Positions 1,891 through 55,662 of a stretch of 64,000 nt of DNA are shown here, in pieces. Origin of the DNA: Marsupella aquatica. Lineage: Eukaryota > Plantae > Marchantiophyta. The stretch lies in the NCBI GenBank assembly GCA_973895155.1, contig OZ316893.1, forward strand, positions 12,168,359 to 12,232,358, read 5' to 3'. The notes under the pieces were generated by a model. The model was not told the origin of the DNA. It did not search any database and was given only the letters and a program-made list of their open reading frames with translations. The stretch's first letter is position 1. The number at the start of each line of letters is the position of its first letter. Both the position numbers and the translations under genes were made by a program.

Positions 1891-1892
<2 letters not shown>

Positions 1893-1934
<42 letters not shown>

Positions 1935-2032
1935 TTTCTTGGGGTTTTTGGAAAGGAGGGGAGAAGTGAGATGGTGGGACTCTACTCGTCGGTCTGAAGT
2001 AGATGGTATTCTCTTAGTGCAATACAGAAACT

Positions 2033-2078
<46 letters not shown>

Positions 2079-2228
2079 TCGGGGTTTTTGGAAAGGAGGT
2101 GATGATAGAGATGGTCTACTCGTTGGTCTCAAGTAGATAGTATTCTTTTAGCACCAATCTAGAGAAACTCTCAGAGAGAAGGGGTTTCCTCGGGGTTTTC
2201 GAAAGGAGGGGAGGAGGAGAGAAGAGAG

Positions 2229-2237
<9 letters not shown>
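1893..2237 (+). repeat. (GA)n tracts plus a triplicated ~130 bp unit covering the AK6 start-codon region
   Basis: ggggtttt(t/c)gaaaggaggg...gagatggt occurs at ~1941, ~2081 and ~2192; GA microsatellites at 1893-1930 and 2037-2071. Confidence 0.8.
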
Positions 2238-4133
<1,896 letters not shown>

Positions 4134-5044
4134 GTATCCACTATCCATATTCCTATTGTGGATTAAATTTTGAACGGAATCCAGACTTGGTGCTATGTTT
4201 GAGATTGATTCTAAAGGTCACTCTGGTTGGCAAAGCTGTACGTTTGTGCTTCTGTGCTTGAGTTATTTGATCGTCTTATCTCAGACTAGCAAATATTACC
4301 TGTACAATCAGCTGTCCTGCAATTAAACGCACTTGTACATGTCAGTGCCTGCCCTCCTTCACCCTCCCTGCACCGGTTTAACCGGAACCAATCCACAACT
4401 GAGTAGTAATTTAGTGTTCGCCCTATCACATACTTTCCCTTGATAGCCAGTCTCATGCAGTGCTTTTCCCAAGCTCTCAACGGCCTATACTCGATCCACA
4501 TTTAAAAATCTCTCTTCGGATCCCCACTACACGTAAATGCCTGTCAGCCTCATAAGAAACATTGCACCTTTGGTCAACATGGAATCAATAGAAAGCTGGT
4601 AAACAATTTACATCAGAGCGTCTTGCATGAAAGATTGAGATTACTCCTGTAATGTACTGAAATCATGAAACTGCCTGCAATTTTAGGCATAACGAAATAC
4701 CCCTCTTGTTTTCCTGGCTGCACTCTGTTCCATAACTTTGCTGGACCCAAATTGTCGGACAACGTTTAGAAAGGATGACCACCTTTCTACGACCGACCAC
4801 ATACTTTAAGGGTCCAGTTAGCTCAGCTGTTACGTGGTTCTGATACCGACTGTTTCCAACCATGGCAACACGGATAGAACCTGTGAAGGGAGCCAACTGT
4901 CTCGCCATGCACACTGCGAATGTCAAGGGCCTCATTTCTTTCTGCATCCGGCAGTTAGATTCAAGTGAAGGTGATTCAATGAAATGACTGGACAGCAGTG
5001 GGGTACGGGTAGGGAGCCCACCAATACGAGGAATAGTGCACAAT

Positions 5045-5092
5045 GTGGAGGACATCCGTAATTACGTTCTCTAAATTACGGATGTCCTCCAC
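5045..5092. repeat. Perfect 19 bp inverted repeat with 10 nt loop
   Basis: gtggaggacatccgtaatt (5045-5063) / aattacggatgtcctccac (5074-5092). Confidence 0.9.
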
Positions 5093-8000
5093 TCTAAATA
5101 GTCCTTCGAATGGGTCTCACTGGCTTCGTTCTGAATTATGTATTGTGTACTTGCAATTATTGGATTGATCTGGCTTAAGTTCTGATCAGTATGAGTGTCC
5201 TTTGTTTAAGGCATTTTGCTCTTGAACGTCACCTGGAATCTAGTCTACAAGAAAGGATCCCATCTGCCAGAATCTGATATTGCAATACGAGCTCATATAG
5301 CCGTTTGTTAGGCCTTGTCAAAGGTGGAAGTCTAGATTACTGTAGATCTCTTGTGTTGTTGCTTTGGAAGAAGCAGACTGCACTCCGAGACCTTGATTTT
5401 CAGGAACTGATTCCGTTATGAGAGTATAAAATCGACATTCAAAAGTGCAAAAGCGGAATTAACGTTTGTCTTGTTCATACAAGGTTACAGTTTCCTTTCC
5501 CTGCATAAATTTTGGGTTGAGAGATTATTTGTGTGATTCGACCACCAACACGGACGTCTCTGTGTACTCCCGTAGTACATGCATTTCGGAATGTCAATTG
5601 GAAAATCGCTTTCAGCATTTGCATGATTGACATGAAAGGAAGCGAAAACATTTTCGTCCCATCTGAAGTACAGTTGGTGAGTACTTCACGACGATTAGCG
5701 AGTACCTCTTCACAACACAGTCCCACATGAGACACATGGTGCCCCAAAGACAGTTTAAGACTGTGTACGTGATTTTGAGCCCCCACAACAGTTGGATTCC
5801 GTCAGCACATGCTTCATAACCACCATTTCCGAAGTCAGAAAATATCAAAACAGCGCAAGCACTCATCCACTGCTCCGTTATCACTTTTTCAGATTCCTGT
5901 TGTACTAACTTTCATTGTGGAAGCAACCCTAAACTCATCACAGTGGAGATCATGAGGTTGCTGCGACAAGTAAACAAATCTCCTCATGCAGACTCCGTTC
6001 AAGGTAATAGGACGACGTGAGCTTCTCCGCCTGATGGAGAGCCACTTTCCCACATGAGACATTGATGAGGAGACCGTAGTACAACTAAACTCTCCGTCAG
6101 TTTCAGAACACTATGACAGACGCAGAATCATTTCATCCCCTTCTTTCCACGAGAGATGGCAGAGAAAATCCACGAACTGTTATTGTTCTATGCTGGATTA
6201 TTCTGGCAATTCTGTTTCTCTGAACACGAGCAGAGTCTACAGTACAATCATGCAATAGATCCGTCTGATGATTGCCCCATAGGCACAGAACAACTTACTT
6301 CCTCCATACATTAACGACTGGAGTACCTTTATCCGTTCTGTTGATCCATTGATGAGCTGGATTTAGAGCTTGATGTAGGTACTCTCCCGTCTGTGGGGCC
6401 AACTAGACAACAACTTACTGTATATTATCCTTCGAGGAGATTGAGGGTGCAAAACAGAGAGAGTACAGCTCGAGGAATGTCAGCTCCGATGACGGCAATC
6501 ATTTACCATCATGCCACTTATTATTTCGATTGTTTCTTCAGACTTCGCAGCATTTAGAACCTGCACTTGCTGTCAGAACTGATCTTGACTCAAATTTGCA
6601 TTTACTTCACATTGAAAGAATGAATTTGATACCTTCTTCAAAGGCTGTTTCCCCTTCCTTTAGTTATTTAAATTGATTTGACACACAGAATCCAGGGAGG
6701 GCTGGAGGCCTTATTTACGGGTTTTTTCTTTAGACTGCCTTCTTTACGGGTTTAGACTGCCTTCTTTACTGGTTTAGGCATTCACTATTGGTTGTATGAG
6801 TGAGGGTTTAGGCATTCACTGTTGTTGATATGGGGGGTGAGGCTGCTGGTGTTATGGACTCTAGTCAAATATTAGTGTGACCCTCCTATGTAGTTTGCTC
6901 AGGAGCTCTACCAGACTTTTCAGTTTGCCTACCAGTAGGGTTTAACTCTTCAATTTTTTATTGTTGCTGTCTAGCCGGGACTCTTGGGATTTTGGGCTCG
7001 ATTGGCTTCCTGGGTTTTTCCATGTTTCCTCTCCCTCCCCTCCACTACTAATGATTTCCTCTCCACTACACTCCTATCTGAGCCATAGGGGCCAAATGCT
7101 GCCTTTTGAAAATATTGTTCAGACATCTGTCTAGTACCATAATGTCCATGCCTTGCACACAATTGTTGTTGCAGCCATGTGGTGGTTGTGAATTTAAAGT
7201 GTTGTCAAGAATGGGTACACAAGTTTAGTGACTGTGCATAATTGTCATTCCAGTCATGTTGTTGAGGCTAGTAGGAAGTATCCTTTTAAATACTGAGAGC
7301 CAAGTCTCTACACCCTACCTTCAACAATTTGCTATCATGGCCATGTGCGGACTTGGGTGTAGAGCAAGGCCTTATCCCCTAGCTTCTGTCTTCACCTTTC
7401 TATACAACAGATGTCCGTAGGGATCAAGAGGGCTCAGGCAATCACAATTCTTTGCAGGGCTGAACTGTTGGTTTGGGGGCCTCTAGGAAAATTCCTCTTT
7501 GTTGCAGTTTACCCCTGCCAAGGCTTTACCAGGCTTTTCAATTTGCTGCTTGGTAGGAATTTAGTTTGCTTTTATGGGGACTCTTATAGGGGGCTTTTGG
7601 ACTCTTTGGTCATCATAGTTTTTCCAGGAGTTCTTCCCTTGTTTCTCTCCTTTAAGGGGTCTCTTGCCACTGGGATCCACTTTCCAATTTGATGCATTTT
7701 GTTCTTTGGCCAAGTGATATCACTGTATATATACTAAGGGCCACCACATTCAAGTCATGGTGGATCACTCAAGAGCCAAAAACCCCTAGAGTCCCAAACA
7801 AAGGTTTAGAACAAAGACAGACAAGGATTGTAGCCCTATTGAGCACCTATTTAATTAATCCGTGGACCCCCATGTTCATCCAAAGAATGTGTGTGTGATG
7901 AAGTGAAATCAATTTCCAGCAAGGCGGTAACCGCTGGTTTGGAGTCTCCCGATGGTCTTGGTGTGTGCTCGTACAAAAAAGAACCCTCAAAAGATAGAGG

Positions 8001-8509
8001 AGATTGATCTGGTTGAGAAGATCTCTCTGGTTTATCAAATGAAAGATTGAATGTGGAAGAATTAAGTTTTTAGACAGTTTTCGCTTACACATTGGAGAAA
8101 TCGTATTTTTACCATTCCTAATTGATCATCGATGAGTTACATTGAGCGATAAAAAAACATTACCGTCACAAGACAAACTGGAGGACAACACTCAGTTGTT
8201 GGCAAAAGAACGCTTGTCGTTTTGGTGGAAGAACGAACAAAATGGACGAGCCATCACTTCACATGAAGGTTTTGTAGTTTTTTTATTTAAGAAAGTTATG
8301 GTGTGAGGGGGAGACCAGCGATTGTTTCTTCGACATAGAGGCTACATTTGGCGTCAACCTGTGTTCAGAGTGAGCTTTAGTTGAAGACTGGAGGGATGTG
8401 AACAATTCAAGCCGAGAAGCAAACATTGCGGACAAGCGATGGCGACGTAATCAAATAAATCAATTTGCAATGGCTAAGTTTGTGACGATGATGAGATTTA
8501 ACATCTTTT

Positions 8510-8990
8510 AAATCGAGAAAGGGTTTCCAATGAGCCTCAGATTGACAAAATTTGTCAAATTCCAATTCTCTGCCTTTCTAATAAATGTGACAATAAGAAA
8601 TTTTGATCATGAGTTCATGGATTCTTTTAGCTTTCCAACATTGAGTCCGACATTGACAAATTTCATGTCAGATTTTGTCACGATACTAAAGAGATCATGA
8701 GGTTTTCAATCTCTCTAGCTTTCTAATGTGAGACATTGAGAGTATTCAAATTAGAGAGATTATAAGTATCCAAATTTCTCTAGCTTTCCAATGAACCCTA
8801 ACATTGATAAATTTTGTCAAGTACTAAGGAGATGATGAGTTTCTAATTTTACTCTAGCTTCCCAATGAGTGTGACATTGAGAGATTTTATCAAGATATTA
8901 CTAAAGAGGTCTGAGATTCTAAATCTTGATCTTGAGCTTTCCAATGAATCAAACATTGACAAATTTTATCAAGTACTAAGGAGATTGATT
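8510..8990. repeat. Degenerate ~60 bp tandem array (TAGCTTTCCAATGA..GACATTGACAAATTTTGTCAAG), probably a transposon subterminal repeat
   Basis: About 7 recurring (g)tttc(c/t)aa(t/c)...acattga units. Confidence 0.65.
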
Positions 8991-10693
8991 ATTTAGGTTT
9001 ACAATGTGGAGCCAAAGGGGTTCTAACTATGTTCATTTATATCGATTGGTTATTTTTCCAAACTTGCAAACATTTAAAAAATACAAGCATTTTGATATAA
9101 AACATTGATATATCATTGATGAATATCATAATGGTAACTTTATTTTACTAAATAACATCTCTTTGTTTGTATTCTGGTTTTTTTATGCTTAATATTTATG
9201 GCTCGGAGCCCCAAAACTTACATTGCTTTTGCCACAAACATGAATGTGTGCTTTTGCTACTGTCAAAAATATTATCTGTCTTGTTTGTGGCTGGTTGTGC
9301 TGATGTGGCGCAACTTCATGGCAGGGAATTTGCCAGGGACCTCTCATGGGGGTCCATAACTAAAAATCCTGGTAGAGCTCTGGAGTAAATCATATAGGAG
9401 GGTCACAAAGAGCAATTTGACAAGAAGCCTTAACACCAAAAGCCTTGGCCTTCAGGATGAATGATAGTGAGTGCCCAAGCCTTCATTAGAGCCCAAAGAA
9501 ACCACTGAGTGGGGGATGAGCCCTTGGCCCTAAGCAACAAATTACAAAAGCCCAAAATAATAAGAATAGGGTGAACAACCAAGTGGAAAACAAAAGAACA
9601 ATGTTTCTTTGCAGATTGTTAAACAATAAAATACACATTTTCAATCACTGCTTCTACAAGCCAAATTTGAATGAGTTTGTTTATTCAAGACACATGTCCA
9701 AATGATATAGAATGAGCCCATAATGAAAGGCCGCTGGCCAAAATTTTAATGACATCGTAAAATCGACACGTGCCCAGAGTGTATAAAACGAGCCCATAAT
9801 ACTGGAAGGGGACTGGTCCTAAAAAAACAGAAAATGCCGGGAAAAAGAAAGTCACACGTGTACACATTGGATAGAACGATCCCTTGATGAGAGGGCACTC
9901 GCCCTTCAAAAACAGAAAATGCCAGCTTCATGAGATAAAAGCGAACAAGATAAAGCCTTCACAAAGTGCTGGATAGGGACTAGATAATGCCTCTTGCTTG
10001 GTGGGGTGGGACTGTGGAAGGCGGCTGGGTAGTTTTTAATGTTTTTTTTCTTTCCAACACGGTACCCAATGTCTTTATGTGTATAAAAAACATACTAAAA
10101 TATTCCATATATAAGTTTATTAGATTTATTTGTATGTTATATCTATATTAAAAAATAATCATGAGATTCTAGCTCATGTGTATGGTTGGGTGAAAAACTT
10201 GATTTTAACTGAGACAGGATTAGGCCACGGTTCTCTCACACGGAAACATATGAAATGATACGAGTCTAAGCACGACAAGATCCAAACCAAAGAATGGTCA
10301 TTTTTAAGGGTGTTTTTTTCCACGAGGGTGCTAATGTCAATTTCTGTAAAAGCAACGATGCTAAGAATTCCTCACCAAATTTCCTAATTAATCTCTGACC
10401 TTTATACATTTCTGAATATAGGGATAACCGTCAGATTATTGGGATGTGTCTAGGAAACAGGAAAAACCTAGCTAATTTTTGCCAAAGTGGCAATGACTTT
10501 TGAGTGAAGTGGAATCTGGCAAATTTTTGCCAACTAAAAATACACTGATGGGTTGAAAGACCTCACACGAAACATATGAAATGAGAGGAGTCTACTGACC
10601 ACAAGATTCAAAGTGAGAAAATTCATGTGAGATTCATTTCTTCAAGAGAACAAAGAAAGGGAGGTATATACTTGAAGGACCCCAAAAAATCAG

Positions 10694-17054: not shown

Positions 17055-18341
17055 ATGAGGTTTACGAAACAGCAGAGAGGTTCTGGAAAGATAGCGAGAA
17101 GCGGTGGAGGACTAGGACGGAAACAGGGAGAAGAATTCTCTGGACATAAGCTACAAATGGAGAATTTGATCGGCTCCATGACGTTGGTGTTGCAGCAGCC
17201 AGATGTTGGTATTGAGGAATTGGAAGGAAGGGTGTGGAGCGAACTTCCCGATGAGTTGGTGGACAGAGTTCTGGCATGTCTGCCAGTCCCCCTCTTGCTC
17301 CAATTGCGCTGTGTTTGCAAGAGATGGAACTCCCTCATCACCTCGGCCCCTTTCCTCAAGCTGCAAGCTGCAGCACCCTATTCGGGACCACACTTCCTCG
17401 TATTTGAACTGCAGAAGCCTAACAATTGGGGAGCTTATGACGCCAGGTTGCAAAAATGGTACACCGTACCTCTGGATCCGTTAGAAGGCGAGATTGTCAT
17501 GTCCATGGCCTCCGATGGAGGTCTGCTCTGTAAGGTGGTTCGCAGTAATTGGATACAGGGCCCGACTTGTATTGTGCTCTCCAATCCGGTCACCAAGTGC
17601 AGAAGAAAACTTCCCATGACGAGAGTTCACCTGACCCCAACATGGATTCCTAGCTTGGTGGTCCTCGTCGTGGACCAAGTGAGAAATTCGTTCAAGGTAG
17701 TGGTGGCAGGATCTAAGGGCTGTCCCCATGGGCTCAACTGTCTTTGTAGGGTCACTGAGGTCTATGACTCCATATCTGATCGGTGGGAGACTACAGGAAA
17801 CCTCCCGCTGGGTTACGTACTGCTAGATCCCCCTTCGTATGTGGTCTGTGGAGGTCACATCTATTGCATTGCGAGCCGTTTTGAGGAAGACTTCATTCTG
17901 GTGGCCTATGATCTGGAGCGGAAGATGTGGAATGAGATCCCCTTGCAAATGCCCAATCTTCGTAAGTCGCAACTATTGCTGTTTGAGAGGCGGGGATCTC
18001 TCGTCCTGGTTCAGCTAGCAGGGGGTTGTTATGGAGTGCCGGAAATTTACACATGGCAACCAGGACATCGTGCTGCATGGGAGTGGAGCCCCGTTAATGC
18101 ATTGTTGCCCAGAATTGGTAGACGGTTTGAAGAGCTCTTCAGGTCTGATCCAGACCTGGCCTGCGGTGGTAAAGGAGACCTGATTTTTTTCGTCTCTCAC
18201 AAGTGTCATCGAGCATGGCTGTATGATATGTCTCACAGGACTTGGACCATCACGCCTGTGAGCAGATTCCTGACGCTGGACCATAAACCTCCTCTGTTGG
18301 CTGTCCCATTCGACTTTAACCTTCAGCTACTTAGTCCCTGA
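17055..18341 (+). CDS. F-box protein with C-terminal kelch-like/F-box-associated beta-propeller, intronless; the true start may be ATG 17157
   Basis: 428 aa ORF with F-box WSELPDELVDRVLACLPVPLLLQLRCVCKRWNSL, then SDGGLLC, NPVTKCRRKLP, TEVYDSISDRW and AYDLERKMW, typical of plant F-box/kelch proteins. Confidence 0.9.
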   Translation: MRFTKQQRGSGKIARSGGGLGRKQGEEFSGHKLQMENLIGSMTLVLQQPDVGIEELEGRVWSELPDELVDRVLACLPVPLLLQLRCVCKRWNSLITSAPFLKLQAAAPYSGPHFLVFELQKPNNWGAYDARLQKWYTVPLDPLEGEIVMSMASDGGLLCKVVRSNWIQGPTCIVLSNPVTKCRRKLPMTRVHLTPTWIPSLVVLVVDQVRNSFKVVVAGSKGCPHGLNCLCRVTEVYDSISDRWETTGNLPLGYVLLDPPSYVVCGGHIYCIASRFEEDFILVAYDLERKMWNEIPLQMPNLRKSQLLLFERRGSLVLVQLAGGCYGVPEIYTWQPGHRAAWEWSPVNALLPRIGRRFEELFRSDPDLACGGKGDLIFFVSHKCHRAWLYDMSHRTWTITPVSRFLTLDHKPPLLAVPFDFNLQLLSP

Positions 18342-19359
18342 AAGATAGTGATGTTCCAATTTTGTACACCTTTCTGTTAGGACCCACCTTGTCACGACAG
18401 TGTGACTGTGCTTGAGTGACCCTTGCTCTCCTCCACGCGGCCTCTTCGTCGTCGAAGAATCTCTATGTAATTATAAGAGTTGTTACAGTCACCACAATTC
18501 CTTGCGTTAGAATTAGAAAAGTCATTCAAATGCTACCCTTGTAAAATTTATGTGTTGTAGTGACATATCTCAAGAGCAAGTGCTGAATTCGTGATCACTT
18601 TACTTTGGGGGATCGTATGGTTGTCTCGTGGCAAATCTTTATTCAGTTGCAGATTTATCATGAATGAAATTTCTTTTGGAATGCAATTTTATTCTGCGAG
18701 ACCCACTGACTCAAGAGGATTAATTATCTCGAGGTCTGATTGAGGTGTAGATAGAGGCAGGTGCTTGTTGCCAGTTCCCGTAATTCCATCATTCGGTTTC
18801 TGTCCCTTTGTATAACCTCTGCTCTGATGAATCCCAATGTCAGACGTGACACAGCTTTGTTTTGATGTCATTATCTTGGAGTGTGATTTCAATGTTAACG
18901 GTTACATTTGAATACATCTCATTAAGATTACAGAAGAAATCTGAAGCCAAGTCTTACAATGTGTCGTCCACCAAGTTTATGTCGGTGCTCAAATCTGAAG
19001 ATCCGAACAGGGACAAGGTTAAGAAATGGAATTTCTCTGTAAAGCATTATGTTTAAACATTCCTTTGTAATGAATGCAAGGAGAGAAAACTGAATTTTAA
19101 TGTTCCAATATTCAATTCTATAATGAATCTGCGGTTGCAATGACTTACAATTTGCACCATTTTCTAGCTTCGTTGGTGACTCCCAAGTGGAATAGGAGCA
19201 TTTGTCTCAGATGGAAAGGTATAGCAGGAAAACTTATCCATGTCTCTCAACTCTTGGAAATGTTCAGCCTGGACGATGTGTAATGCTGAGATAGTAGTCT
19301 CACACGAAGACTGACCTACGATATGCCAAACCTTTCTTTCTGCTGCCGATCATCATCGA

Positions 19360-19905
19360 CTGTGGGTCCTCCTCCCATACAAATGAGCTCTCCAGCAGAA
19401 TGATCCACACCTACTGCAACTGAATTCAAAAGACTCGAATGATACTAGGGAAGGACCCAAGAAAGCTTCGGCCAATCGAAAGTTTTGCCTGAGTGTTTAC
19501 AACTGAATAAAAATGCAAGTGACCGTGCAAAAAACTCGAATGATACTAGGGAAGGACCCAAGAAAGCCGGCCAATCGAAAGTTTTGCCTGAGTGTTTACA
19601 ACTGAATAAAAATGCAAGTGACCGTGCAAAAAGTTGAAGGGAATTAGGCAGAAAGTTGAAGGACTGTGGGTCCTCCTCCCATACAAATGAGCTCACCAGC
19701 AGAATGATCCACCTACTGCAACCGAATTCAAAGACTTGAATAATATTAGGGAAGGACCCAAGAAAGCTTCGGCCAATCGCAAGTTTTGCCTGAGTGTTTA
19801 TGCAAGTGACCGTGCAAAAAGTTGAAGGGAACTAGGCAGAAAGTTGAAGGGGACTAGGGAAGGAAACAAGAAAGTTTCGGACAATCGAAGGTTTTACCTG
19901 AGCAT
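19360..19905. repeat. Mosaic of locally duplicated 60-120 bp blocks
   Basis: tagggaagga(cc)caagaaag..ggccaatcg..gtttt(g/a)cctgag occurs 4 times; gactgtgggtcctcctcccatacaaatgagctc occurs twice. Confidence 0.85.
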
Positions 19906-22900
19906 TGACATCTGAATGAGATTCGAAGTGTTCGCCTATCTTCACCGTTTTGCAAAAGGTTTTCGGCTAGCCTGTGGGAGACTACCATGTCAAAGGTTGT
20001 CACATCTTTATCGTGGGCTGTAGATTTGATGGGGAGTAGTATTGGCAACCCTCTGTTTGAGCAATTCTGTAAACTGTTCTTTCATAGTTGTGATATTTCA
20101 GTCTGATTCTACTTGTTCATTGCGAGCATTGATTATACAGTCAGCTCCTCTCGGTGGAACTGTGCACTTTGAAGGAACTATGTGCATGCCTCTTCTAGCC
20201 TAGGGTTTTTGGTGACCTTCTGCAGGACTCGGGAAACAATTCGCCTGCACTCATTATTTAATTCTTGCCTGGAACTTCATTGCAATCCATTGAATAGCTC
20301 ACCATTTGCAATCAGATTTAATCACATTTCCAACTGAGTGGATCGTGATAATTTGAATTCCAGCAGGGATACGGTCGAGAACAAAATGTTTGTCCACCCT
20401 CGTCTGCTTCACACACATTGATCTTCGCCACCTGATTCGTAGTTCTACGTGATATCTGTGGATAGATTTTCATTCAATCCATTTAAAGAGCAATACTCTC
20501 ATTCCAATCAGAAGAATCTTAAGATGTGTACTCCTCTCTTCAAACGTCCTTTAGAAGCACGCATCTGATATGAACCTGCAAATCTAGTGACGGTAAAGAA
20601 GGAACAAGGTATATGGTTCTCTCTCTCCGCAAAAGTGACTTTTTGGAGGTGGAGGATCAGATCCAGGGCATGGTGTGGATGCTTGAAGAGCATCTCTAAC
20701 CCTTACTGTAAATGGGTGTTGACAGAACCCAGTAACTAAAATGCAAAAAGTTATATCCAACCCATTCACGTTGACTCTATCTGATTTTCAGGGACTGGGT
20801 CTTTTGGGGGGGACTGGGTCTTTTGGGGGGCACTGGGTTTGTACGTGGAAGATAATTTGCAGTTTTGACTTTCGGTTAAAGATTATAACCTACTGTGGTT
20901 ATAATCTGAACTGAATGGCGCAAACTGGCAAAACCAGTACCTATCCTAGTCACCTGCTAGTGGTCTCCTCTTCTGGCCACCAATGGCCGACCATCTGGAA
21001 TTGCACAAAGGCAGTAGAAATCCAGTTTTGGAGGCGAGCGACCTCGTGACAAAGGGTTGCCCAAGAGACTCTGAAAACTCATACTCAATTTGGGGACATT
21101 AGTAATTGGTTTTGCCTTGCTAGCACCCTTCCTTGCCTGCAAGCATTCCTGCTTTCATCTTACAAACCCCTACTACACGGCATAGCTCCCTCTGGAACAT
21201 GAGAACCCCTAAACATTAGGCACAGAGTAGAGAAACAACATCACTAGCCATAAGAAATTAAGGCCTAATCACTTCAAGCAGCAAGAAAAATAGAGTAGCA
21301 GCAGATCATTTCCCTCAAGTTTCACTCATACTGTACTCATCCTTCCTTTGCAACATCAATCATCAAGACTCTTTATGGCCAACGAGGTCAATTGTCAGAA
21401 AGGGATTGTCAACCTCAAAGTATGATGGATCTTAACTTAGTAGTAATGGTATGGACAGAAAAAATTATGGACTACAAAATTCATGATCCATAACTTTTTG
21501 CCATAAAGATTGGTCTATGTCATGACCAACCATAAGTTGATGGAGAGGCTAGTGAAGTCAAAAACTAAATAAACTTTTATGCAACCCTGTTTTGTCTATG
21601 GCCAATGACAAAACCTCATAGTTTATGGCCAATAAACTCTTATGGCTGTGAATTTTTGGACGTCTGATACATGCAGGGCACCTTCATAAGTAGCTTGTAA
21701 GGGTTTTGTCCTGGCCGCAAAACCATTTATGTCCCCAATCTCACTTACAGCCCTACCTTGACAGACGCTACTAGGGGGTCTCAATCTTCTTTGTCTTGCC
21801 TCCAGTTGTAGTCAAGGGTTTTGTCCCAAAAGAAAAGGTTAGGTGGACACTAAAATGCTTGTCCGCACACTCCTGACCGTAGACCATAACTGCTACTTTG
21901 GGGACAAATTTTTGTTCGCGGACCTGAAGGTTTGAGACACTATTATTAACCCCCCACCCCCAAACACCCCTCCAGCCCAAGGGCTACCCTACACATCAGC
22001 CAAAGAGTACATCAACAACATCATTAGAGAGAGAAAAACACTTGATGGGAAAGAAAAAAAACTTACAAGGCCCCATGGTTTGCAAGAGACTCCCTGGGCC
22101 CCCAGGTCCTGTAGCCCTTGCATATCCCCTGCAACCTCACTCTCTCTAGCCCTAGCTTGCAATGCTCCATGGTTAACCAGCCTGCACCAAGCAACCCTAG
22201 ACAGTGTCCCTAACAAGTTATTTGTTAAGCTGTTTCTTTTTGTCCGAGTGGCAAATCTCACCTGGTGTTTCGGAAGATTCTGAAAATATTTCTTATGTAT
22301 ATATCTTAGTTTAATTTCTGAACACTATTTCTCCCTAGATATAGAGAAACGGTCAGATTCTGCCAAATAGAGTATGTGGCTAGATGGGAAAGTAGCGAAT
22401 AAACTTGCTAATTCCCTCCAAAGGTGGCTAACACTGTCTAGTGGGTGCAATATGGCAAATTTTTGCCCTTAAAAATACACTACCTTCCCTTCCCTTCCCT
22501 TCTTCTGGGCACCACATTGCACCATGTACCTTGGCATTGTAGGGGCTTCCTTGTGTCCTGCAGAAAAAGGGCAAGAGGCAAACAGGAAATTTTGGGGTTG
22601 CACTATGTCACACCATTCTAGGTAGTGTTAGAGTGTATCGTACTATCTAGATCTGTATGTTTGGTATGTGTGCTATATGAGCCGATAAGGTTCCGTCAGG
22701 TTTGTATGAGAGGGTACTTCTCACTTGTGAGGCATTGAAAGGTCATCTTTCAATGTTGAGCCTTGGAGAGAGAGGAGCTTGAGTGTGGCTATGGTGATTG
22801 TGAGCTCTGCTTGTGTAACGTGGATTCCTTGAGTAGTGCAAGGTGCGTTGGCTTGACATACATGTGTGATCAGATCGGTGCGGGATCAATGGGGTATTGT

Positions 22901-23189
22901 TGACCGGGATCATTGTGCCGATTCTATTGAGATTACATTGAAGATCAGGAGCTTCAAACTCTGTTGTGCGGACAGAAGCTCAGTCTGAGTTTGTCGTTGA
23001 CGATTTGCGGTAGATCGAATTGATTGGAGCTGTTGTTTTGATCCATGGTACCTTGGATCGTGGAGTGGATCGTCGGTATTGTGATCCGCTATAGTCGGTG
23101 TTGAGAAGTTTGTCTGTGATTTTTGCTGCCATTTGACGGACAGTATGCTGTTGTTCGCATTTTTGTGAAGTAGATCGAGCCTGTTGAGG

Positions 23190-23425
23190 TGCGGATGTTG
23201 GTAGATCGGGCTTGCATCGTCGTCTTATGCAATTCTGTTGGGCCGATCTGCTGTTTTTGCAAGGGAAACACCGGATGTTGGTAGATTGGGCCTGCATCAT
23301 CATCATATGCAGATCTGCTGTTTTCGCGAGGGAAACAGCCACGGATGTTGGTAGATCGGGCCTGCATCGTCATCGTATGCAGATCTGCTGTTTTTGCAAG
23401 GGAAACAACCGTGGATGTTGCTGAA
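23190..23425. repeat. ~69 bp tandem repeat (3-4 copies) in the 5' LTR/UTR region of the retrotransposon
   Basis: ggatgttggtagat(c/t)gggc(c/t)tgcatc...gatctgctgtttt..c(a/g)agggaaaca is repeated. Confidence 0.85.
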
Positions 23426-24647
23426 TTGCGCAACGACACTGCCTGTGTAGCATTTTGCAGAACTTGCATGTCAACCTCTACGTTTTGTTGAAGAAACAGA
23501 ACTTCAAATGTTGTTGTTTTGGTAGCGGATGCGGGCTGCTGCTGATCAGAGCGCGGAGGCACTATCGCCTGCGTGTTTGCGAAGGGAAATGACTTGGGAA
23601 TGTTGCCCATTTTGCGAGGGCTGGATCGCGGATTCGCTACGACTGGGCTGTGCGCCAACGCGCTGCATTTCTGTGAAGGAAACTAGAGGCCGAAGTATGG
23701 ATGTTGCCGAATCTGGAAGTTGGGTCCGGCGTAGCGAAGCGTTGCGAGCGTGAAGGGCTCACTCCTTGGCTCATCTCGGTGTTTAGAGGTTTCGAGGCAA
23801 CTCGTGGTTACTCGGGACATGAGGGCGAAGCAGGCAGGCCAGCAGCTGGTACGTGAGGAGTAGTTGCAAGCTGCTGATTTGGAGCGGCCATTTTGGTGCA
23901 TAACTACAAGTGAGAGGTCACCCATCCCAAAGCTATTCCTTCCCCACGCGCTTAACTATGTGGTTCTTAAGTGCTCTTGTGTACACACACTCTTTTCCAC
24001 TTTGATGTTAATGGAATGAGCACCTAGGCATTTTATACACATTCTAGTTTGTTTAGATTGCCATTTTGGGCCAAATCATAAGCTCTCTGGAGGTTTTTGA
24101 TGCTTCTGAATCCATCAAGATGCATGGATTAAACCAATTGTGCATGGATCCTTAGCTACGACATTGAACATTGAGAGGCCTATTATGAAGGTCCTACATT
24201 GAACATTATGAACATTGTTTGATTGATGTATGATCACTATTGATGTGGAGAGTTATTGTGGATCTCTTCTTGTTGATTGGATCCTCTCCACATATGCTTC
24301 TTGTTTATGCGCCATGTTAGTTTGGCGTGGGCGCTTGATTCTATAGGAGTGATCCGGGTTTGCAACCGGACATTCTAGTTGTGCTACGTATTTCTCTCCT
24401 GATGATGTTGGAGTGATGCCCAACATATCATGGTGAGTGCTTGTGTTACTGACAGGGACAGATTGCCCTTAGGGTTAACATATAGATTAGGTTAGGTTGG
24501 TCACCACGGATTCTTCTGACGCTGCTGGGTTACCCGTTGGACGACGGACCGGTTTCACTCAGAGTGGGGCGCAGTTTCGACCAGTGACATTGGTAGCAGT
24601 CAACAGTCAGCAGCACAGCTTCAGATAGTGATTCTGACGAGGACTCT

Positions 24648-26650
24648 ATGAGCAATTCTCCTCGTCATCAGGTGATTGCACCTTTGTTGTGGGATATGGA
24701 AGAGATGTACGGGGCTACGAAGGGCCCACAACGATACTCTGGTGCAATTGGCACGATTGATCTGGATGACTTCATCCAGGAGTTTGATACGTGGTGCGAT
24801 ATGTAGACATTGCATAACGCCACGTTGTTAACCCCTTTCATGGCATGGAAGGGATTATTTTAGCATTTGGAGGGGCCACCCATGGATGACTACCATGAGT
24901 TTTGGAAGGCTCATTTGGTTGAGATTGAGGCATGGAGGCAGCATTGGTCGCCTAATTATGTGTCCATCACCTATGGCACTAGTGCGGCTGCCCAACCCAT
25001 TGCCACAGCTGCTGCTTCTTCTAGCAGCACTAGCCAGAGTGGCACACCATCCACCAGCAGCACTCCAGCAGCATCCACCGCTACTTCTGCCGGTGTGATT
25101 GTGATAGGGATTGGAGCTGCACCAACATTTAACCCTATGGTGGAATTCTTTGAGGTACTGAAGCAGAATTATCAGGGTGTGAGAACTGATAAGTTGAAGG
25201 GTCTCCAGGAGTTCCAGCGCAAGACTGGAGAGAGTCTACGTGAGGCATACACTCGTATGCGCAGATTGATCACTGACACCAAGGGCGTGACAGAGGCTCA
25301 GGCAGTCCAGTTTTGGTATGCAATTCTAGACAGAGAATTGCGATGCAGAGTGAGAGATGTCACTCTACTTAGGGATGCAGATCCCACATTAACAGTTGTT
25401 TTTACCCTTTCTGAGCGTATTGAGCTCAATATGGTGAATGAGAAAGGTGGTGACTTTTGGATTTGCCAAGGAAGCACCAAAGGCTGCATCTATATCCACA
25501 CCACAACCTACTACACGGAAGTGCCAGAGGGAGAAGCCTACTGCACGAGAGTCTACCAGCTAGAGACCTGTGCCCTCTTATGCTGGACAGCAGTCAGGAT
25601 GTTGGACCTGTGGTGGGGATCATGCATAGGGATATTTCCCAGATCATAGAGGATTAGGGGGAGCATCAGCGCCTGATTAGCGATAGTGTGATCACTGTGG
25701 AGCTCCTGGACACACCAATGATAGGTGTTTTTCACTCCATCCTGAGTTACAGAGAGGAGGAGGATCCCGTACACATGATCAGGGAAGAGGAGGTAGAGGT
25801 GGTGGACGTGGTCGTGGCATGCCACATGCAGGAAGACAAGGAGGTGACGCTGCCCCTACTATAACCATAGATCCAAATGATGCTAAGATTGCTCAATTGG
25901 AGCAACAACTAGTTGCCATGGCTAGTTCCCAGGTAAGACCTACTTCTGGTGATGGGGCATCTACATCCTATGGACCTTCCACATCCCATGGTCCTTCCAC
26001 ATCTTATGGAGCTGATGGAGACCTTGCCACCATGGGATTCATGTGTGGCACTACACATATTGATGCATTAGCAGCTTTGACACGTGGAGCAGCCAAAGCT
26101 CTTGAGCCCCGAGGAGCAGTAGTGAAGTTAGATCCACAGAGGGGGGATGCACGTCGGCAGACAAAGCTTCCTCAGTCTTTTACATTGTCAGAGACAGTTC
26201 AGACTGCCTCTATGAACCCGGTTCGGACAAACCCTGGCGTGGGTAAGTTGGCAGAATCAGGTAGTGATGCAACAGGGATGATAGGTACCTTGATGGGGGC
26301 GGCTACTGCCATGGTACGCACCCCATTATTTTCAGCGACAGACATGCTGAACTTGGGAGTTGGTCCTGCAGAAGTGTTCAGATTGGCAGCTACACTCTGT
26401 GAGCACACTCCAGTGGTTGCTTCCCATGCAGAAGTAACTTGCAGAGTTGAAGCAGTGAAGACCATGCCACCTACTGCTACTAGTGAGACATGGCATGCAG
26501 CAGCAGCGAGGTTGGTGGATTTACCAGCACGCCCTGCATTTGAGAGGACTAGGTTTAAACCTAGTGTTGTATCATTGGATAATCGGAGTGGTATCTTCCA
26601 ATTAGTTGGGCCTTCTAGAGCAGTATACCAGCCCGGGATACCAGCCAGAG
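24648..26650 (+). pseudogene. gag: gag region of the gypsy element with two zinc knuckles
   Basis: Retrotrans-gag-like FQRKTGESLREAYTRMRRL; knuckles CWTCGGDH (25600, degenerate) and CDHCGAPGHTNDRC (25687-25728, C-x2-C-x4-H-x4-C) followed by an RGG-rich tract. In-frame stops at 24804 and 24861, frameshift near 25445. Confidence 0.8.
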
Positions 26651-26995
26651 AAGGTGTTATTGGATAGTGGTGCTCAGCCCTTGATGTTGGGTAAGTCTGC
26701 CATACGTGGATTGGGATTGTGTCCAGAGGATTTGGAGGATTGTCCCTTTCTCATTCATACTTCATTGGGGGGACCTACACCTACACAGCACATTACCAGG
26801 AGACCTCTTGATTTGAGGATTCAGGAAGGTCATACCACAGATAGCTCACAAATACAGGCGCGAACTATTTTGACTAAGACAGAGTCATATGATGTGTTGG
26901 TGGGATGTACAGTGCTCTACCCCATGGGATTTATTCTTGATTTTTGTGAGGAATCAGTGTCATATAGACCTGATTGGCAGTCAGGAGATGCTTGA
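26651..26995 (+). pseudogene. Retropepsin-type aspartic protease of pol
   Basis: KVLLDSGAQPLMLG (catalytic DSG at 26663) and downstream YDVLVG. Confidence 0.9.
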
Positions 26996-27349
26996 TTGAG
27001 CAAATTGCCAGTGAGATTTAGTGGACCTATGGGAGGCCCTAAATCCACACCATTGTCTTTGGCAGCATTCAGTGGTGTAATTATTGGACCTGATGATTTG
27101 ATTGAGGATAATGCGCATGCAGTAGATGTTCTACCATTGGAGGAGTCTCATGAGGAGCACATCATGCGGGGATTACCTATTGGCAGTGTTGTGCCACCAG
27201 TGTGGGGCACTGCACAGGCAGTAGCATGATTGGTACATAATGCATGGTGTCATGCTTTTGCACCACAGTCAGGAGCAGAGCAGTCTCTTGTAGATGGACC
27301 GGTGACTTTTTCACCATTAGATACCTCTCCTATTGCTTGGCAGTATCCA

Positions 27350-28300
27350 CCAGAGGGTATTTGTTTGTTGGATCTTTTTGGTGGGATTAGCACTGGATTG
27401 GCTGTTGTTCTTCAGGCAGGAATTCCTGTGCGTTGTTATTTGTATGTGGAGACAGATGAGACAGCACGGAGGGTCTCATTGTGACATATGGCTATGTTGG
27501 TGGATAGATATCCACAGTTGCTGCTAGTGGATGTTGTTCATGGTTATCAACATGCACTACCTGCTGATATTTCATTGCTGGGGGTGGATCATCTGCATCG
27601 TGTTGGCCCCATTGATTTGGTGATTGCTGGTTGGCCATGTCAGGGCCAATCTAGAGCTGGCGTTGGGCATGGACTTATGATCCACGCTCTGCATTGTTTT
27701 GGGAGATGTTACAGGTGCTGTGTCATCTCCAGCTACATCAGACACAGTCTCCAGCATATATTTTGGAGAATGTGCCATTGTTAGGTGATGATTGTAGTTG
27801 GATTGTTGCCAGTGTTCACCAGGTGAGGTCTTGGATTGGACCTGCTGTGTTATTGGATGCTGCATGTGTGGGTTCTCGTGCACATTGTCCACCGTTGTGG
27901 TGGACTAATTTGATCCCATGTGAGGTGCTAAAGCACATATTTGACAACATTCCATGCTCACCAGCCTTAGTGGTGGATGATATTTTGGACCCAGGGTGTC
28001 ATGCACAGGGTGTGACCCACTCTGATTGCCATCCATTGGCAATGGTCAATGCAGTTGGGCGCCCATGTTGTGCATTACCCACTCTTGTAAGGCACTCTGC
28101 TTCATATGCATTCAGAGCAGGTGGCCCTGGACTTGTGTGGGACATAGCTCTCCAGTAGTTAGTGGAACCTACTACTGATGAGAGAGAGCGTGCTATGGGA
28201 TTTTTGACTGGCACCACTGCAGTTGCCTCTCTGTCAGAGGGTTTGCGGCGCCAGGTTCTTGGTCAAGCAATGGATCTGAATTATTTGACTTGGATTATCA
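27350..28300 (+). pseudogene. C5 cytosine DNA methyltransferase catalytic domain (DNMT3/DRM-family-like, non-permuted) embedded in pol
   Basis: Motif I LLDLFGGISTG (27371), II YVETD, IV IDLVIAGWPCQGQSRAG (PC at 27635-27640), DPRSALF, VI YILENVP (27766), VIII DAACVGSRAHCPPLWWTN (27856), IX ERERAMGF (~28180), X RRQVLGQAMD (~28246). Stops at 27482 and 28156, frameshift near 27675. Confidence 0.92.
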
Positions 28301-28643
28301 GCTTGGGAGTAGCTGAACAGTTGCGGATGTGCTCTGCTGGAATTACTGATTGTCCCTTGGTGAGCTTGTGGTCCACTGAGACAGTATTGACCATAGCTGG
28401 GGGCGAGCAGACAGTCCATGGACCTATGGCAGGATTGGCCAAGGCTGGCAGATTGTTGAGCAGGAAGGGATTGCTCAATCTACTACTAAATAGCAATCAT
28501 CGGCTATCTCTTCTACCCTACAAAGAGATATTAGGGATTTGGTGGAGAGTTGGGAACCACAGCTTGGCCCTAAGTTGACAGGGGAGGAGAGACGTTGCAT
28601 GCATTGATTCCTGAAGAGTTACTGGAATTGTTTTGCATTTAGC

Positions 28644-29520
28644 ATGAAGGATTTGGGGACATTAAAGGGTCCTGGTATTCAGATTGAATTGGCTAGTGAT
28701 GCGCCAATCTTTCGTAGGCCATACCATTACAGTGACATGGAGAGAGCTCAGATTCAAAGTAGAACTCAAGATTTGTTGGAGGCTGGATTGGCAAAGATTT
28801 CATATGGGGAGTATGCATGTGCCACAATGATGCCAGCCAAGAAAGATGTGCATGGCAATTACATAGATAGGCGCATGTGTGATGATTACAGACCCATTAA
28901 TTGCCAAACAAAATCTGATAGATATGCCATGCCCACACCTGAGGAGATCTTTGATGCTGTGGGGCATGCAAAGGTTTTCAATTCATTGGATCTGAGGGCA
29001 GGGTACCATCAGCTTCCAACTAGGCATGCTGACAGGTCCAAGACAGCATTCTGGGGGATTGATTCTTATGGCAAAGATCGTTTGTATCAGTGGTTATTCT
29101 TACCATTTGGGTTGAAGAATGCACCAACTGAGTTCCAGAGAGTCATGGATCGAATCCTTGTAGGTTTGGATTTTGTCAGATGTTATATTGATGATATTTT
29201 GGTCTATTCTTCTACTATGGAAGAACATCAGTAGCACTTGCAGATTGTGTTGGAGAGATTGAGAGCACATGGGTTGAAGCTCCATCCTAGCAAGTGTAAG
29301 TTCTTCCAAGACCAGATTGAATATTTTGGCCACACTATATACCCAGGGGGATTGGGTGTACAACAGACTAAAGTGGAGGCCATTACACAAATTCCTTGTC
29401 CTACTGATGTGAGTAGAGTTCGTGCATTCTTGGGATTGGCGAGCTACTACAGGAGGTATGTTAAAGGATTTAGCCAGTTTGCTAAACCTTTGACCATACT
29501 CACTAAGTTGGATTAGGAAT
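28644..29520 (+). pseudogene. Reverse transcriptase (gypsy type)
   Basis: RMCDDYRPIN, DRYAMP, SLDLRAGYHQL, LPFGLKNAP, YIDDILV (29184), KCKFFQDQIEYFGH, VRAFLGLASYYRRYV. Confidence 0.97.
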
Positions 29521-29599
29521 GGATTTGGGGTGATGACCAGGAGCATGCCTTTCAGGAGTTGAAGCAAAGGTTGGCATCATCCCCTATTTTGAGAAGACC

Positions 29600-29970
29600 C
29601 ATTTCATGTAGACCATTTTAGCTACACACTGATTGGAGTGGAGTAGGTCTTGGAGCAGTGCTGACTCAGAAGGATGATGAGGGGAATGAGTTTGTTGTGG
29701 CTTATGCCAGTAGATCAAACAATTTAGCAGAGGCTAAGTATAGCTCTTATGAGGGAGAGTGTTTGGCAGCTGTGTGGGCTGTTGCACACTTTTGTTGCTA
29801 CTTGTTTGGTAACCCCTTCACCTTGATCATCAGCCTCTTAAGTGGTTAATGGAGTCTGACAAGCTTACAGGGAAGCTTGCACAATGGGCATTGTTGTTAC
29901 AGGAGTATGATTTCCAGGTGGTGCATAGGCCTGGAAAAGTGAACTTGGATGCAGATGGATTAAGCCGCAA
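29600..29970 (+). pseudogene. RNase H domain of pol
   Basis: LHTDWSGVGLGAVLTQ, VVAYASR, YSSYEGECLAAVWAV, WALLLQEYDF..HRPGKVNLDADGLSR. Confidence 0.93.
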
Positions 29971-30329
29971 TCCATGTATCAGTCAGCAGGATGAGACTGG
30001 AGCCAGATGGCATGATGAGTCAGATAAGGAGATGGTGCCAGGATGGCATGCATCTGCCTTTCTTTGTTGGGTGCCAGAATATAGTGGATCTGTGGACTCT
30101 ACCTCATTGGATGGAGTGGATGATGAGTCTTCAGATGTGGATGTTGGTGAGGTAACTTATGGACAGCAAAATATTCACAATGATGTGAGAGTGTTGGAAT
30201 ATCTGCGCAGTGGTTCTATTGTTGGCAGTGTTGATGCCAAAGAACGTGACAGGGTTCTACAAAGAGCCAAGAGGTTTCGATGGGAGGGAAACCATCTTTT
30301 GAGAGTACTGCATGATGGTAGGGTGTTGG

Positions 30330-31270
30330 TGGTACCAAAACCATCACAACGAGTACATTTGGTGCGACATGCACACAAGGAGTTGGGTCACTTTGGTGTG
30401 AAGCGCACTTACAGCTTGCTGCAGACACAGTATTGATGGCGTGGTATGCACACTCATGTCTAGCAGTTGATAGCTAAGTGTGTGGTATGTGATAGAGTGA
30501 GAGCATCATTTAATGCTCCCACTCCCTAGTTGCACCCGTTGCTGATCATGGGTTTGGGATATCGTTGGAGTTTGGATTTTGCTAGTCCATTACTTACCCA
30601 ACGTCATAATCAGTATGTTTTGGTCATGGTGGAGCACTTCTCCAAGTGGATTGAGCTAGTGGCGTTGCCAGATAAAGCCAGTGGAGGAGTTGCTGCTACA
30701 TTTTTGGATCGTGTACTCAGTCATTTTGGAGCACCAGTTGAGATGTTGACTGATCAGGGAACTGAGTTCCGTGGAGAGTTTGAGAGTTTTTGTGAACAAG
30801 CTTTGATTGATCATTGTACTACCTCTCGTGATCATCCTAAGGCAGATGGATTAGCTGAGAGAGTTGTGCAATTAGCTGAGAGAGTTGTGCAAACTGTGAA
30901 GAGAGGATTGCGTAAGTATGGCTTGCAAGTTGGTCATTTGGGAGATTGGGATCTCCAGCTACCTTGGTTAGCTATGGGCTACCGTTTCAGTCGGCAAGCA
31001 TCACTTGCATCCTTCTCACCTTACTTTTTGCTCTATGGTAGAGAACCAGATTTGCCAGCAGCTATTCGTCGTGATGCTGCACCAGTTGTGAACTTGGATG
31101 ATCCTGATGTTTGGGTCAAGGTGTGTTTAGAGAGAGCATGGGTATTTCAGAGAGTGATGCCCATGGCTTTTGACAACCTTGCCATTGCCCAACATCGTGA
31201 TACTTTGAGGTATGCCACTATTCATGGAGGAGGTTACCGTGCAAGCATTCGACGATTTCATCTTGGTGTT
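30330..31270 (+). pseudogene. Integrase (HHCC zinc finger plus DDE core)
   Basis: H..KELGHFG...CVVC, WSLDF, VEHFSKW, LTDQGTEF, ADGLAERVVQ and FSPYFLLYGREP; the ttagctgagagagttgtgcaa 21 bp tandem duplication lies at 30851-30892. Confidence 0.95.
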
Positions 31271-31488
31271 ATGTTTATTTGCAGCAGACAGCACCCACGA
31301 CACTTGATGTGACCGCAGGCCGGACGATCTTATGTGTGCGTGAAGTGTTACCTTCTGGTATTCTGATGTTGGAGGGACGCGATGGTATGGTTTGGAAGGA
31401 TCATGTGCGCAACTGTGCACCATGTCACCTTCCCAACATTGATGGTACAGTAGATCCAAGCTTGGCACATGTTCATGCTGGCTTGAAA

Positions 31489-31629
31489 TGTATGTTGTGT
31501 GGATCTGCTCAAGGAGCAGCTACTATGTTGATTTGTGATAAGTGTTCTAGAGGATGACACATGTCATGTTTGACACCACTATTGCAGGTGATTCCTAGTG
31601 GATCATGGTTGTGTCCTCAGTGTCGGTGA
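31489..31629 (+). pseudogene. PHD finger at the C-terminus of integrase/pol
   Basis: CMLC..MLICDKCSRG*HMSCL..PSGSWLCPQC is a Cys4-His-Cys3 pattern with the conserved W-x-C-x2-C. It is interrupted by TGA at 31555 and ends at TGA 31627-31629. Confidence 0.9.
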
Positions 31630-32534
31630 AGCCAACTAGTTATCATTTGTGTTCTCTTGGCAGATATGGATTGCAGGTAGGTGATCGATGGGACTCACTT
31701 GCACTCGGCCTCCTGATCTTCACACCTAAAAAGGTGTATATCAACCTTGTAGAACTCATGGCTAGCTAGAGTTAGGGGACCTTACTCCTAGCTAGGGGGG
31801 CGATTGTGGGTTTTGGACATGTGTGGACATGAGTTCCACTTGTATTCCATTCTCTTGTGTTTGTGATGTGGCAGTGTGATTATGTCTGGATGTATGTTGT
31901 GTAGCGATGTGTATGCGCACGACAACTAGGGCAGCAACCCTTCCCCATTGTTTTTTTTTTGCACCCAGAATGCAATGAGTTGGGTCATGGGATTTTTTGC
32001 CACTAACTTGTACAGTCCATACACAAAATTGGTCTGCACCAATGTTATAGGATGTTGAGTTAACCCATGGGCGGGGTTGCGACCCCGTCTCAAATCAAAA
32101 CCCCCCTAAGTAGGTTAATTTTCCTAACCAATGTTCTGACCCATAGTGACACTCCAATGGTATGGGCATCTCAAAGTTGCCCTTCCCTAAAAAGTTTTTG
32201 ATCAACTGCTGTGCAAAGTTCCACTCTGCAACCCCACTAAAAATGTATACACCATTTTGGTTAAAATGAGTCAGTGTTTTTTTCTTTATGGAACCTAGTC
32301 ACATACCCCCTATCCCAGAATTTGACAGTACTCATAATAACATATTCATCTAATAAAACTATACAAAGAATATTCTTAGAATCTTCAACTTCAATATACC
32401 TGGTGACATTTGCCACTTTAGGAAAAAAGAAAACTTTAAAAAAATAAGTTTGCAAGGACAACAGGGCTGCTGGGAACTATGCTGGTTGGCTATGGAACTG
32501 TGTACTACCAACTTCCCCTGAACACAGCCCCCAG

Positions 32535-33341: not shown

Positions 33342-33506
33342 ATGGCGAAAGGAGCAGGAGTATGGAACAGAGTCAGAGAAACCATCGCCAACGAGGTCCA
33401 GGACGAGGAGAGGCTCGCAGCCAACTTGAGACTGGTCCGCTCGGTGGGTCTCTTCCTTGGCTCGGTTCTGGTGATGCGGAACTTTGGTGAGCTGATGGCT
33501 GTTTGA
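33342..33506 (+). CDS. TOM5: Mitochondrial import receptor subunit TOM5 (54 aa, single exon)
   Basis: MAKGAGVWNRVRETIANEVQDEERLAANLRLVRSVGLFLGSVLVMRNFGELMAV fits the plant TOM5 pattern (..DEE..A.N..L.R..G.F.G....MR.(F/Y)G(D/E)LM.V) and size. Confidence 0.88.
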   Translation: MAKGAGVWNRVRETIANEVQDEERLAANLRLVRSVGLFLGSVLVMRNFGELMAV

Positions 33507-55625: not shown

Positions 55626-55662
55626 TGCAATCTCTCCTCAGGAGTGTCGTGCGCATTCAGGA

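Follow-up and report, generated by a model that had tools for sequence, protein, structure and literature searches.

A Gypsy-type retrotransposon family of bryophytes with a DNMT3-like cytosine methyltransferase ahead of a probably leaky stop codon

The window analysed here is a stretch of 64,000 nucleotides from the liverwort Marsupella aquatica (contig OZ316893.1), and it contains at 22606-31924 a Ty3/Gypsy-type retrotransposon insertion of 9319 bp with a DNMT3-like C5 cytosine methyltransferase between the protease (PR) and the reverse transcriptase (RT). The insertion has TG...CA ends and the form A-coding-polypurine tract (PPT)-B, in which A and B are parts of split terminal repeats. We propose that it belongs to a bryophyte family of Gypsy-type elements whose first frame encodes Gag, PR and DNMT3 and ends at a leaky UAG; the DNMT would be made at capsid level, packaged into the particle, and would methylate the element's own cDNA before integration. 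We put the probability of this reading at roughly 55%.

All the protease, methyltransferase and RT motifs named in an earlier sequence-only reading of the window were found, in canonical order. They are LLDSGA at 26657 (Asp at 26663), DLFGG (motif I) at 27371, YVE (II) at 27443, GWPCQG (IV) at 27629, ENV (VI) at 27766, SRAH (VIII) at 27874, ERERAMGF (IX) at 28180, LGQAMD (X) at 28258 and, in the RT, YIDD at 29184. Protease, linker and the N-terminal half of the methyltransferase share, as that reading had described, one frame broken by single TGA stops, of which we count three. The methyltransferase is interrupted by a TGA (27482), by a change of frame near 27677, which falls between motifs IV and VI, and by a TAG (28156). 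The stretch from the methyltransferase to the RT contains another frame shift (near 28448) and, at 28491, an in-frame TAG. At 27676 and 28448 the window is not of the same length as contigs of other copies, and both shifts are therefore private to the window copy. This copy is dead: in-frame stops number 19, and the frame changes at least 6 times over 7 aligned segments.

Searched against Pfam PF00145, the check that the sequence-only reading had proposed, the window fragments score 13.9-14.4 bits and stay under the 22-bit cut-off, and the domain of an unbroken relative matches at 3e-14. The fragments are not chance resemblances: of 1385 candidates, 54 proteins match the C-terminal half at E ≤ 1e-3 (best 9e-99), and most of these are annotated with PF00145. 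The best PDB matches of the N-terminal half are DNMT3A (E 3e-4); the C-terminal half alone has no PDB match. With the unbroken relative as query, DNMT3A, DNMT3B and DNMT3C come ahead of bacterial enzymes and DRM in the PDB search. The AlphaFold model of this relative (predicted local distance difference test score, pLDDT, 90.5) finds DNMT3B and DNMT3A first (E about 1e-18), with a target-normalised TM-score of about 0.8 against human DNMT3A/3B. The catalytic motifs PC, ENV and HRxR are retained in the relatives. The domain is a non-permuted DNMT3-like C5-methyltransferase with a predicted DNMT3 fold, which bears out the DNMT3-like assignment made from motifs.

Named relatives were found in Marchantia polymorpha (more than 10 models), Calypogeia fissa, three Sphagnum species, Closterium, Monoraphidium, Haematococcus and Klebsormidium nitens. 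In a metagenome scan, 295 of 600 candidate stretches were confirmed, and the best 80 of these are the metagenome loci given L numbers below. Proteins of Marchantia, Calypogeia and Sphagnum have the DNMT in the same place, as do the retrieved loci, and another retroelement domain is present in 84 of the 150 cluster representatives listed. Prokaryote genomes yielded one locus, L111, in which positions 1-9285 form an unbroken element with circularly overlapping ends; its contig is filed under a cyanobacterial assembly, and the locus is likely plant DNA contaminating that assembly. Viral contigs yielded only distant phage C5-methyltransferases (30 loci, 25-43% identity over short stretches), which were used as the outgroup.

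The DNMT is a co-inherited domain of the element under purifying selection. Trees of DNMT and of RT plus RNase H (RH), built from the same 47 rows by quick IQ-TREE runs with the SH-like approximate likelihood ratio test (SH-aLRT) as the only support measure, contain the same three groups, with two label changes each, which is the minimum. The eight stop-bearing rows fall on one side of a branch, with SH-aLRT values of 93 for DNMT and 100 for RT-RH. The ratio of nonsynonymous to synonymous substitution rates (dN/dS) between subfamilies is 0.08-0.23 for DNMT and 0.04-0.14 for RT; among decayed copies inside a subfamily it is 0.21-0.53 and 0.08-0.61, respectively. Both analyses had been suggested by the sequence-only reading, and their outcome supports its view of an integral domain.

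Other arrangements were also observed. In a second subfamily (L041-L080), the DNMT is about 40% identical and is joined to the RT without a stop; these loci share the split repeats, end motifs and 4-bp target site duplications (TSDs) and derive from the metagenome series that also yielded the Sphagnum-type loci. In a third architecture, RT-RH-DNMT-integrase (IN)-PHD, the DNMT lies between RNase H and integrase (L044:7997-13117, L046:602-3964 and L047; P0133 and P0143). Among the 150 representatives listed, no multi-domain form is more frequent; its named members are from Monoraphidium neglectum and Haematococcus lacustris, and it falls on one side of a branch in both trees. A full-text literature search with Monoraphidium returned no report of it. 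P0352 (2311 aa) combines RT, PHD, PCIF1_WW (PF12237), RNase H and a DNMT related to the element DNMTs, which suggests a DNMT exchange with a different class of retroelement.

The sequence-only reading had placed the methyltransferase within pol. This view has to be revised, since in the subfamily of the window the DNMT ends the Gag-PR-DNMT frame at a conserved UAG before the RT. In L035, a frame of 1369 aa is followed by TAG CAG TTA and then by an RT-RH-IN-PHD frame of 1047 aa. L111 likewise has two frames split by one UAG (TAG CAA TCA), the second of 1047 aa. L034 has TAG CAG TTA at the DNMT/RT boundary, and in the window TAG CAA TCA stands at 28491, in frame with the RT. The CAR-YYA context of the tobacco mosaic virus (TMV) readthrough signal is thus present in all four, with letters varying within the consensus; following a TAG it occurs by chance at 3 of 786 TAGs in the window and at 32 of 10459 in the loci. 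Among the Sphagnum-type loci (41 examined, 9 not anchored), the stop is kept at 31 of 32 anchored sites and CAA comes next in 30 of 32.

Gene models show the same boundary. The NCBI Sphagnum model P0053 ends at the same residue as the conserved stop, and of the 38 proteins that combine PR with a full DNMT, 26 stop 14-142 residues past the DNMT and lack RT; the other 12 are four Marchantia or Sphagnum models with differing joins and eight members of the fused subfamily. In L035 and L111, conserved RT sequence begins at about residue 25 after the stop and the first Met is residue 117; because this Met lies well inside the conserved RT, ordinary AUG initiation of Pol is argued against. We do not claim a stimulatory RNA stem 3' of the stop, as z-scores in five sequences were mixed (-0.8 to -3.0). 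Judged from its context and conservation, the UAG between DNMT and RT is likely leaky. The TMV UAG-CAR-YYA signal is read through with about 10% efficiency (PMC2754532, PMC2194720).

The proposed mechanism has four steps. By analogy with TMV, some ribosomes would quite probably read through the UAG to give a rarer Gag-PR-DNMT-RT-RH-IN-PHD protein, and the Gag:Pol cut-off would thereby fall after the DNMT and not before the protease. The protease would then, with only slightly less confidence, free the DNMT inside the particle. The freed DNMT would, on balance, methylate cytosines on the new cDNA, and the insertion would arrive already marked. The last step falls somewhat short of even odds: the PHD finger of the integrase may read histone H3 tails for site choice, and the integrase may cut the abutted B|A joint of a circular or joint-bearing cDNA. 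The solved structures closest to the PHD finger are those of CHD4, DPF2, ATXR5 and KDM5 PHD. Many PHD fingers of these types read unmodified H3 tails. Related DNMT3 domains carried by DIRS elements have de novo CG methylation activity in yeast (PMC5890265).

Several observations weigh against this reading. The Sphagnum-type context is CAA-CCC, with the final A absent at 32 of 32 sites (5 of 6 positions match), and these copies have an AUG two codons past the stop. A perfect CAR-YYA is found in four sequences, which represent two or three independent lineages. The fused subfamily has no stop, and of its 28 linked loci (counted without L064, which is of a different type), 10 are open throughout and 18 have scattered stops or shifts; bulk expression of the DNMT is therefore not needed in all members. 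The unbroken relatives are weakly CpG-depleted, with observed/expected (o/e) ratios of 0.55 and 0.78, and because the depletion is not strong they show no clear sign that CG self-methylation has acted over the long term. In the window copy the CpG o/e is 0.27 compared with 0.55 in the rest of the window, which host methylation can explain, and CpG depletion is not diagnostic of self-methylation. Finally, the Klebsormidium domain was inactive in yeast, a result that its authors call inconclusive (PMC5890265).

The weak CpG depletion of unbroken copies and the inactivity in yeast would also suit a different role, in which the DNMT works away from the particle or without catalysing methylation: on host chromatin, at the insertion site, on element RNA, or as a decoy binding DNA or S-adenosylmethionine; the chlorophyte-type position between RNase H and integrase would fit a function during integration. 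We regard such a role as possible and clearly less probable than packaging. A non-catalytic function is hard to reconcile with the catalytic Cys, ENV and motif VIII, which are conserved under purifying selection, and fusion to Gag, the usual route into the particle among retroelements, argues against a function outside it.

An alternative in which the element retains the DNMT as one of its parts but translates Pol from a spliced or internally started RNA is unlikely. Such routes have precedents in copia splicing and the Tca2 junction promoter (PMC2194720), an AUG stands 3-5 codons past the stop in Sphagnum-type and L034 copies, and four NCBI models join DNMT to RT. However, in the Pol frame of L035 and L111 no Met precedes residue 117, and the four models, which are probably prediction artefacts, place their joins differently. 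Also against it, the reading frame is preserved through the stop, with CAR-YYA letters that covary inside the consensus. The window copy by itself is too decayed for the Pfam cut-off and might have been taken for a single capture, or a nested insertion, of a gene for host DNMT3. That possibility is refuted and its remaining probability negligible, since the relatives share the position of the DNMT, the DNMT and RT trees are congruent, DNMT depth is similar to RT depth in four runs (depth giving no copy number) and there is no internal duplication or intron; the enzyme is an integral domain of a Gypsy-type element, as the sequence-only reading held.

The window copy has the order PR-RT-RH-IN with a DDE integrase that defines Ty3/Gypsy elements, and its features are as follows.

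22602..22605, + strand: left copy of the TSD, ACTA, 4 bp; from flank comparison
22606..31924, + strand: whole element; from ends, flanks and 12 of 15 letters at the start shared with the sequence after B in another copy
22606..24695, + strand: 5' repeat A and long 5' untranslated region; the 3' end of A is undefined, with a single A in the window
24696..26649, + strand: gag with zinc knuckles, broken; PF03732 at E 0.004, under the cut-off
26639..26968, + strand: aspartic protease (LLDSGA); runs on from Gag without a break in relatives
27344..28320, + strand: DNMT3-like C5 cytosine methyltransferase, broken, motifs I-X linear; from motifs, homologues and the unbroken relative
28491..28499, + strand: in-frame amber stop with CAA-TCA (TMV-type CAR-YYA), end of the Gag-PR-DNMT frame; from relatives and the RT frame
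28494..29908, + strand: reverse transcriptase (YIDD at 29184) and RNase H, broken; PF00078 at 4e-18, PF17919 at 1.5e-21
30332..31345, + strand: DDE integrase (zinc finger, core and C-terminal part), broken; PF17921, PF00665 at 1e-13
31480..31626, + strand: PHD finger at the C-terminus of the integrase; PF00628 at 1e-10
31792..31803, + strand: polypurine tract; the same tract lies ahead of B in L030, L035 and L111
31804..31924, + strand: 3' repeat B, ending in CACGACA; blastn match to B of L030 and others
31925..31928, + strand: right copy of the TSD, ACTA; from flank comparison

Among the 11 TGTCA sites in 18000-24700, only 22606 has ACTA on its left, and it is also the best match in that interval to the letters that follow B in another copy (12 of 15). 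The window gag shares 60% identity with Marchantia Mp_4g09160 over residues 1-240 and 40% over residues 240-634. In four public runs, the depth over the element is far above that of the single-copy 3' flank, with DNMT and RT bins alike and repeated DNA from 23500 onward; this depth is no copy number and shows only that the family is repeated and that its copies mostly carry the DNMT stretch. Three imperfect tandem repeats of 70-80 bp lie at 23192-23431 in the element's 5' region. This region has a CpG o/e of 0.77 versus 0.27 in the coding part.

The sequence-only reading expected paired long terminal repeats (LTRs); the window has no 5'/3' LTR pair, and split repeats are found instead. The layout of relatives is A-coding-PPT-B-A-B (L030, L031, L043, L050, L051, L074 and L080), and a single terminal B (A-coding-B) is present in five loci and the window. 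This short form could have arisen by B-B recombination or from a smaller circle. A 4-bp TSD was found in 8 of the 9 full-length relatives tested. The B|A joint, read in 15 loci (for example, L030:10344, L035:8653 and L111:7048, plus 12 other loci), is CA(C/T)GACA-NN-T(G/A)TCA(C/T)G, where NN is GC in 6 and otherwise mostly transitions of GC. It is a near-palindrome made of the right end motif, a two-base spacer and the left end motif, and it resembles the abutted-end junctions of some bacterial insertion sequences.

The two ends of the element cannot both be primer-defined, because the polypurine tract primes at B and not at the left end. No TGG-type primer site was found directly after A in 6 of 6 relatives examined, the end of A being undefined in the window. 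The simplest reading of the joint motif is that the integrase would cut the B|A joint. A symmetric cut of a two-LTR circle at either joint was considered and is not supported, as the predicted A-B-A-coding-B was seen in 0 of 25 5' ends. DIRS, PAT and Ngaro elements are not known to make a target duplication. Membership in these groups was rejected, as a DDE integrase and TSDs are present and a tyrosine recombinase was not found; the two main open reading frames (ORFs) of L035 and L111 contain no recombinase family. Troyka elements share a Gypsy-like domain order and were likewise set aside, having CG..CG ends, a 3-bp TSD, ordinary LTRs and an animal-only distribution (PMC12440569) versus TG..CA ends and 4 bp here. 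We file the element as Gypsy-type by its enzymes and not as a canonical LTR element.

The charophyte and dinoflagellate precedents mentioned in the sequence-only reading do exist. KnitGypsy-Dnmt3 of Klebsormidium nitens was reported by de Mendoza et al. (2018; PMC5890265), who left the role of the enzyme open. It has Gypsy domains and an intronless, non-permuted Dnmt3-like domain that has conserved key residues and is under purifying selection, as here, and a DIRS-like A-coding-B-A-B layout, which our relatives show in the long form and the window in the short form. In the K. nitens model KFL_013780020 (GAQ93235.1) the domain order zinc knuckle-protease-DNMT is the one seen here, and its DNMT shares 35% identity with that of L035. 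It is the deepest branch among 60 retro-DNMT rows in a tree with phage outgroup and no host DNMT3 (three rows used for the earlier trees were left out, one a duplicate and two long branches).

The present family differs from KnitGypsy-Dnmt3 in its land-plant host and many copies, whereas the 2018 paper regards the acquisition as particular to the K. nitens lineage. That paper places the DNMT in the Pol ORF, whereas here it lies on the Gag side of UAG-CAR-YYA, the fused subfamily excepted; this difference in ORF layout is provisional, since the K. nitens model is partial and likewise ends just past the DNMT. The available text of PMC5890265 makes no mention of a PHD finger, a 4-bp TSD or an end-joint motif for KnitGypsy-Dnmt3. 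The window element is filed as a relative, not a member, of KnitGypsy-Dnmt3. SymbioDIRS-Dnmt3 of Symbiodinium is also a retrotransposon with Dnmt3 and an A-coding-B-A-B layout, and has CG de novo activity in yeast; it differs in having a tyrosine recombinase instead of a DDE integrase, a dinoflagellate host, and DNMT and RT in one ORF (PMC5890265).

The in-frame stop with CAR-YYA is shared with TMV-type readthrough (PMC2754532, PMC2194720). In soybean SIRE1 (pol/env) and murine leukemia virus (gag/pol), a suppressed stop sets the ratio of two products. Unlike in these three systems, the stop here follows Gag-PR-DNMT, which would put the protease and an enzyme cargo on the abundant side. The plant host enzyme PpDNMT3b (Yaari et al., 2019; PMC6453930) and human DNMT3A/3B have the same linear motif order and a fold like the one predicted here; the domain is about 21% identical to human DNMT3 and, unlike it, is part of a mobile polyprotein.

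Retrotransposon DNMT3s in 'streptophytes and dinoflagellates' are mentioned in PMC12344493, citing the 2018 paper, and its supplements could list bryophyte copies. No such element appears in the available text of PMC11982613, PMC11244446, PMC6453930, PMC9516144 or PMC6317226; the last of these, the REXdb survey, does not mention methyltransferase, PHD, Marchantia or Sphagnum in that text and so offers no lineage name for the element. Full-text literature searches, with subscription journals and Repbase outside their scope, returned no land-plant report, and 'KnitGypsy' occurs in the 2018 paper only. The element is thus of a known kind; its new aspects are the range over land plants and green algae, the likely leaky stop that leaves the enzyme with Gag, and ends that would be set by the B|A joint.

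The window also contains two intronless F-box/kelch genes, at 17055-18341 (+) and 53718-55637 (-). The former shares 82% identity with Calypogeia fissa, 48% with Marchantia and 44% with Riccia, and this closeness to C. fissa points to a leafy liverwort as the likely host, in agreement with the land-plant host assumed in the sequence-only reading. At 2163-3713 (+) lie exons of a P-loop gene (PF13238) of the adenylate kinase 6 type. A short ORF at 33345-33506 (+), without a Pfam match, resembles plant mitochondrial TOM5. Nested inverted repeats at 62952-63299 form a hairpin of roughly 350 bp that resembles a miniature inverted-repeat transposable element.

A broader interpretation, which we consider tentative and rather doubtful as a whole, is that a de novo DNMT3 of its own belongs to an ancient Gypsy-type clade that spans chlorophytes, charophytes, liverworts and mosses. 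In the bryophyte branch, the DNMT3 would have been moved ahead of a leaky stop of TMV type, onto the capsid side, giving many copies per particle, and paired with a histone-reading PHD finger of the integrase, in the manner of the host logic of DNMT3 plus reader; integration would proceed by cutting the end-to-end joint of a circular cDNA and would not depend on ends set by primers. Fresh insertions would then already carry methylation, and Marchantia polymorpha would have in these elements an overlooked source of DNMT3 activity, open to direct tests in that species.

The more than 10 annotated Marchantia polymorpha models make the question of the enzyme's role testable in a tractable liverwort, and the stop arrangement predicts the amount and place of the enzyme, which earlier work did not address. 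The combination of split repeats, a DDE integrase and 4-bp duplications points to an unusual definition of element ends. Annotation tools that rely on paired LTRs would probably miss such elements, and methylome studies of bryophytes may take their models for DNMT genes of the host.

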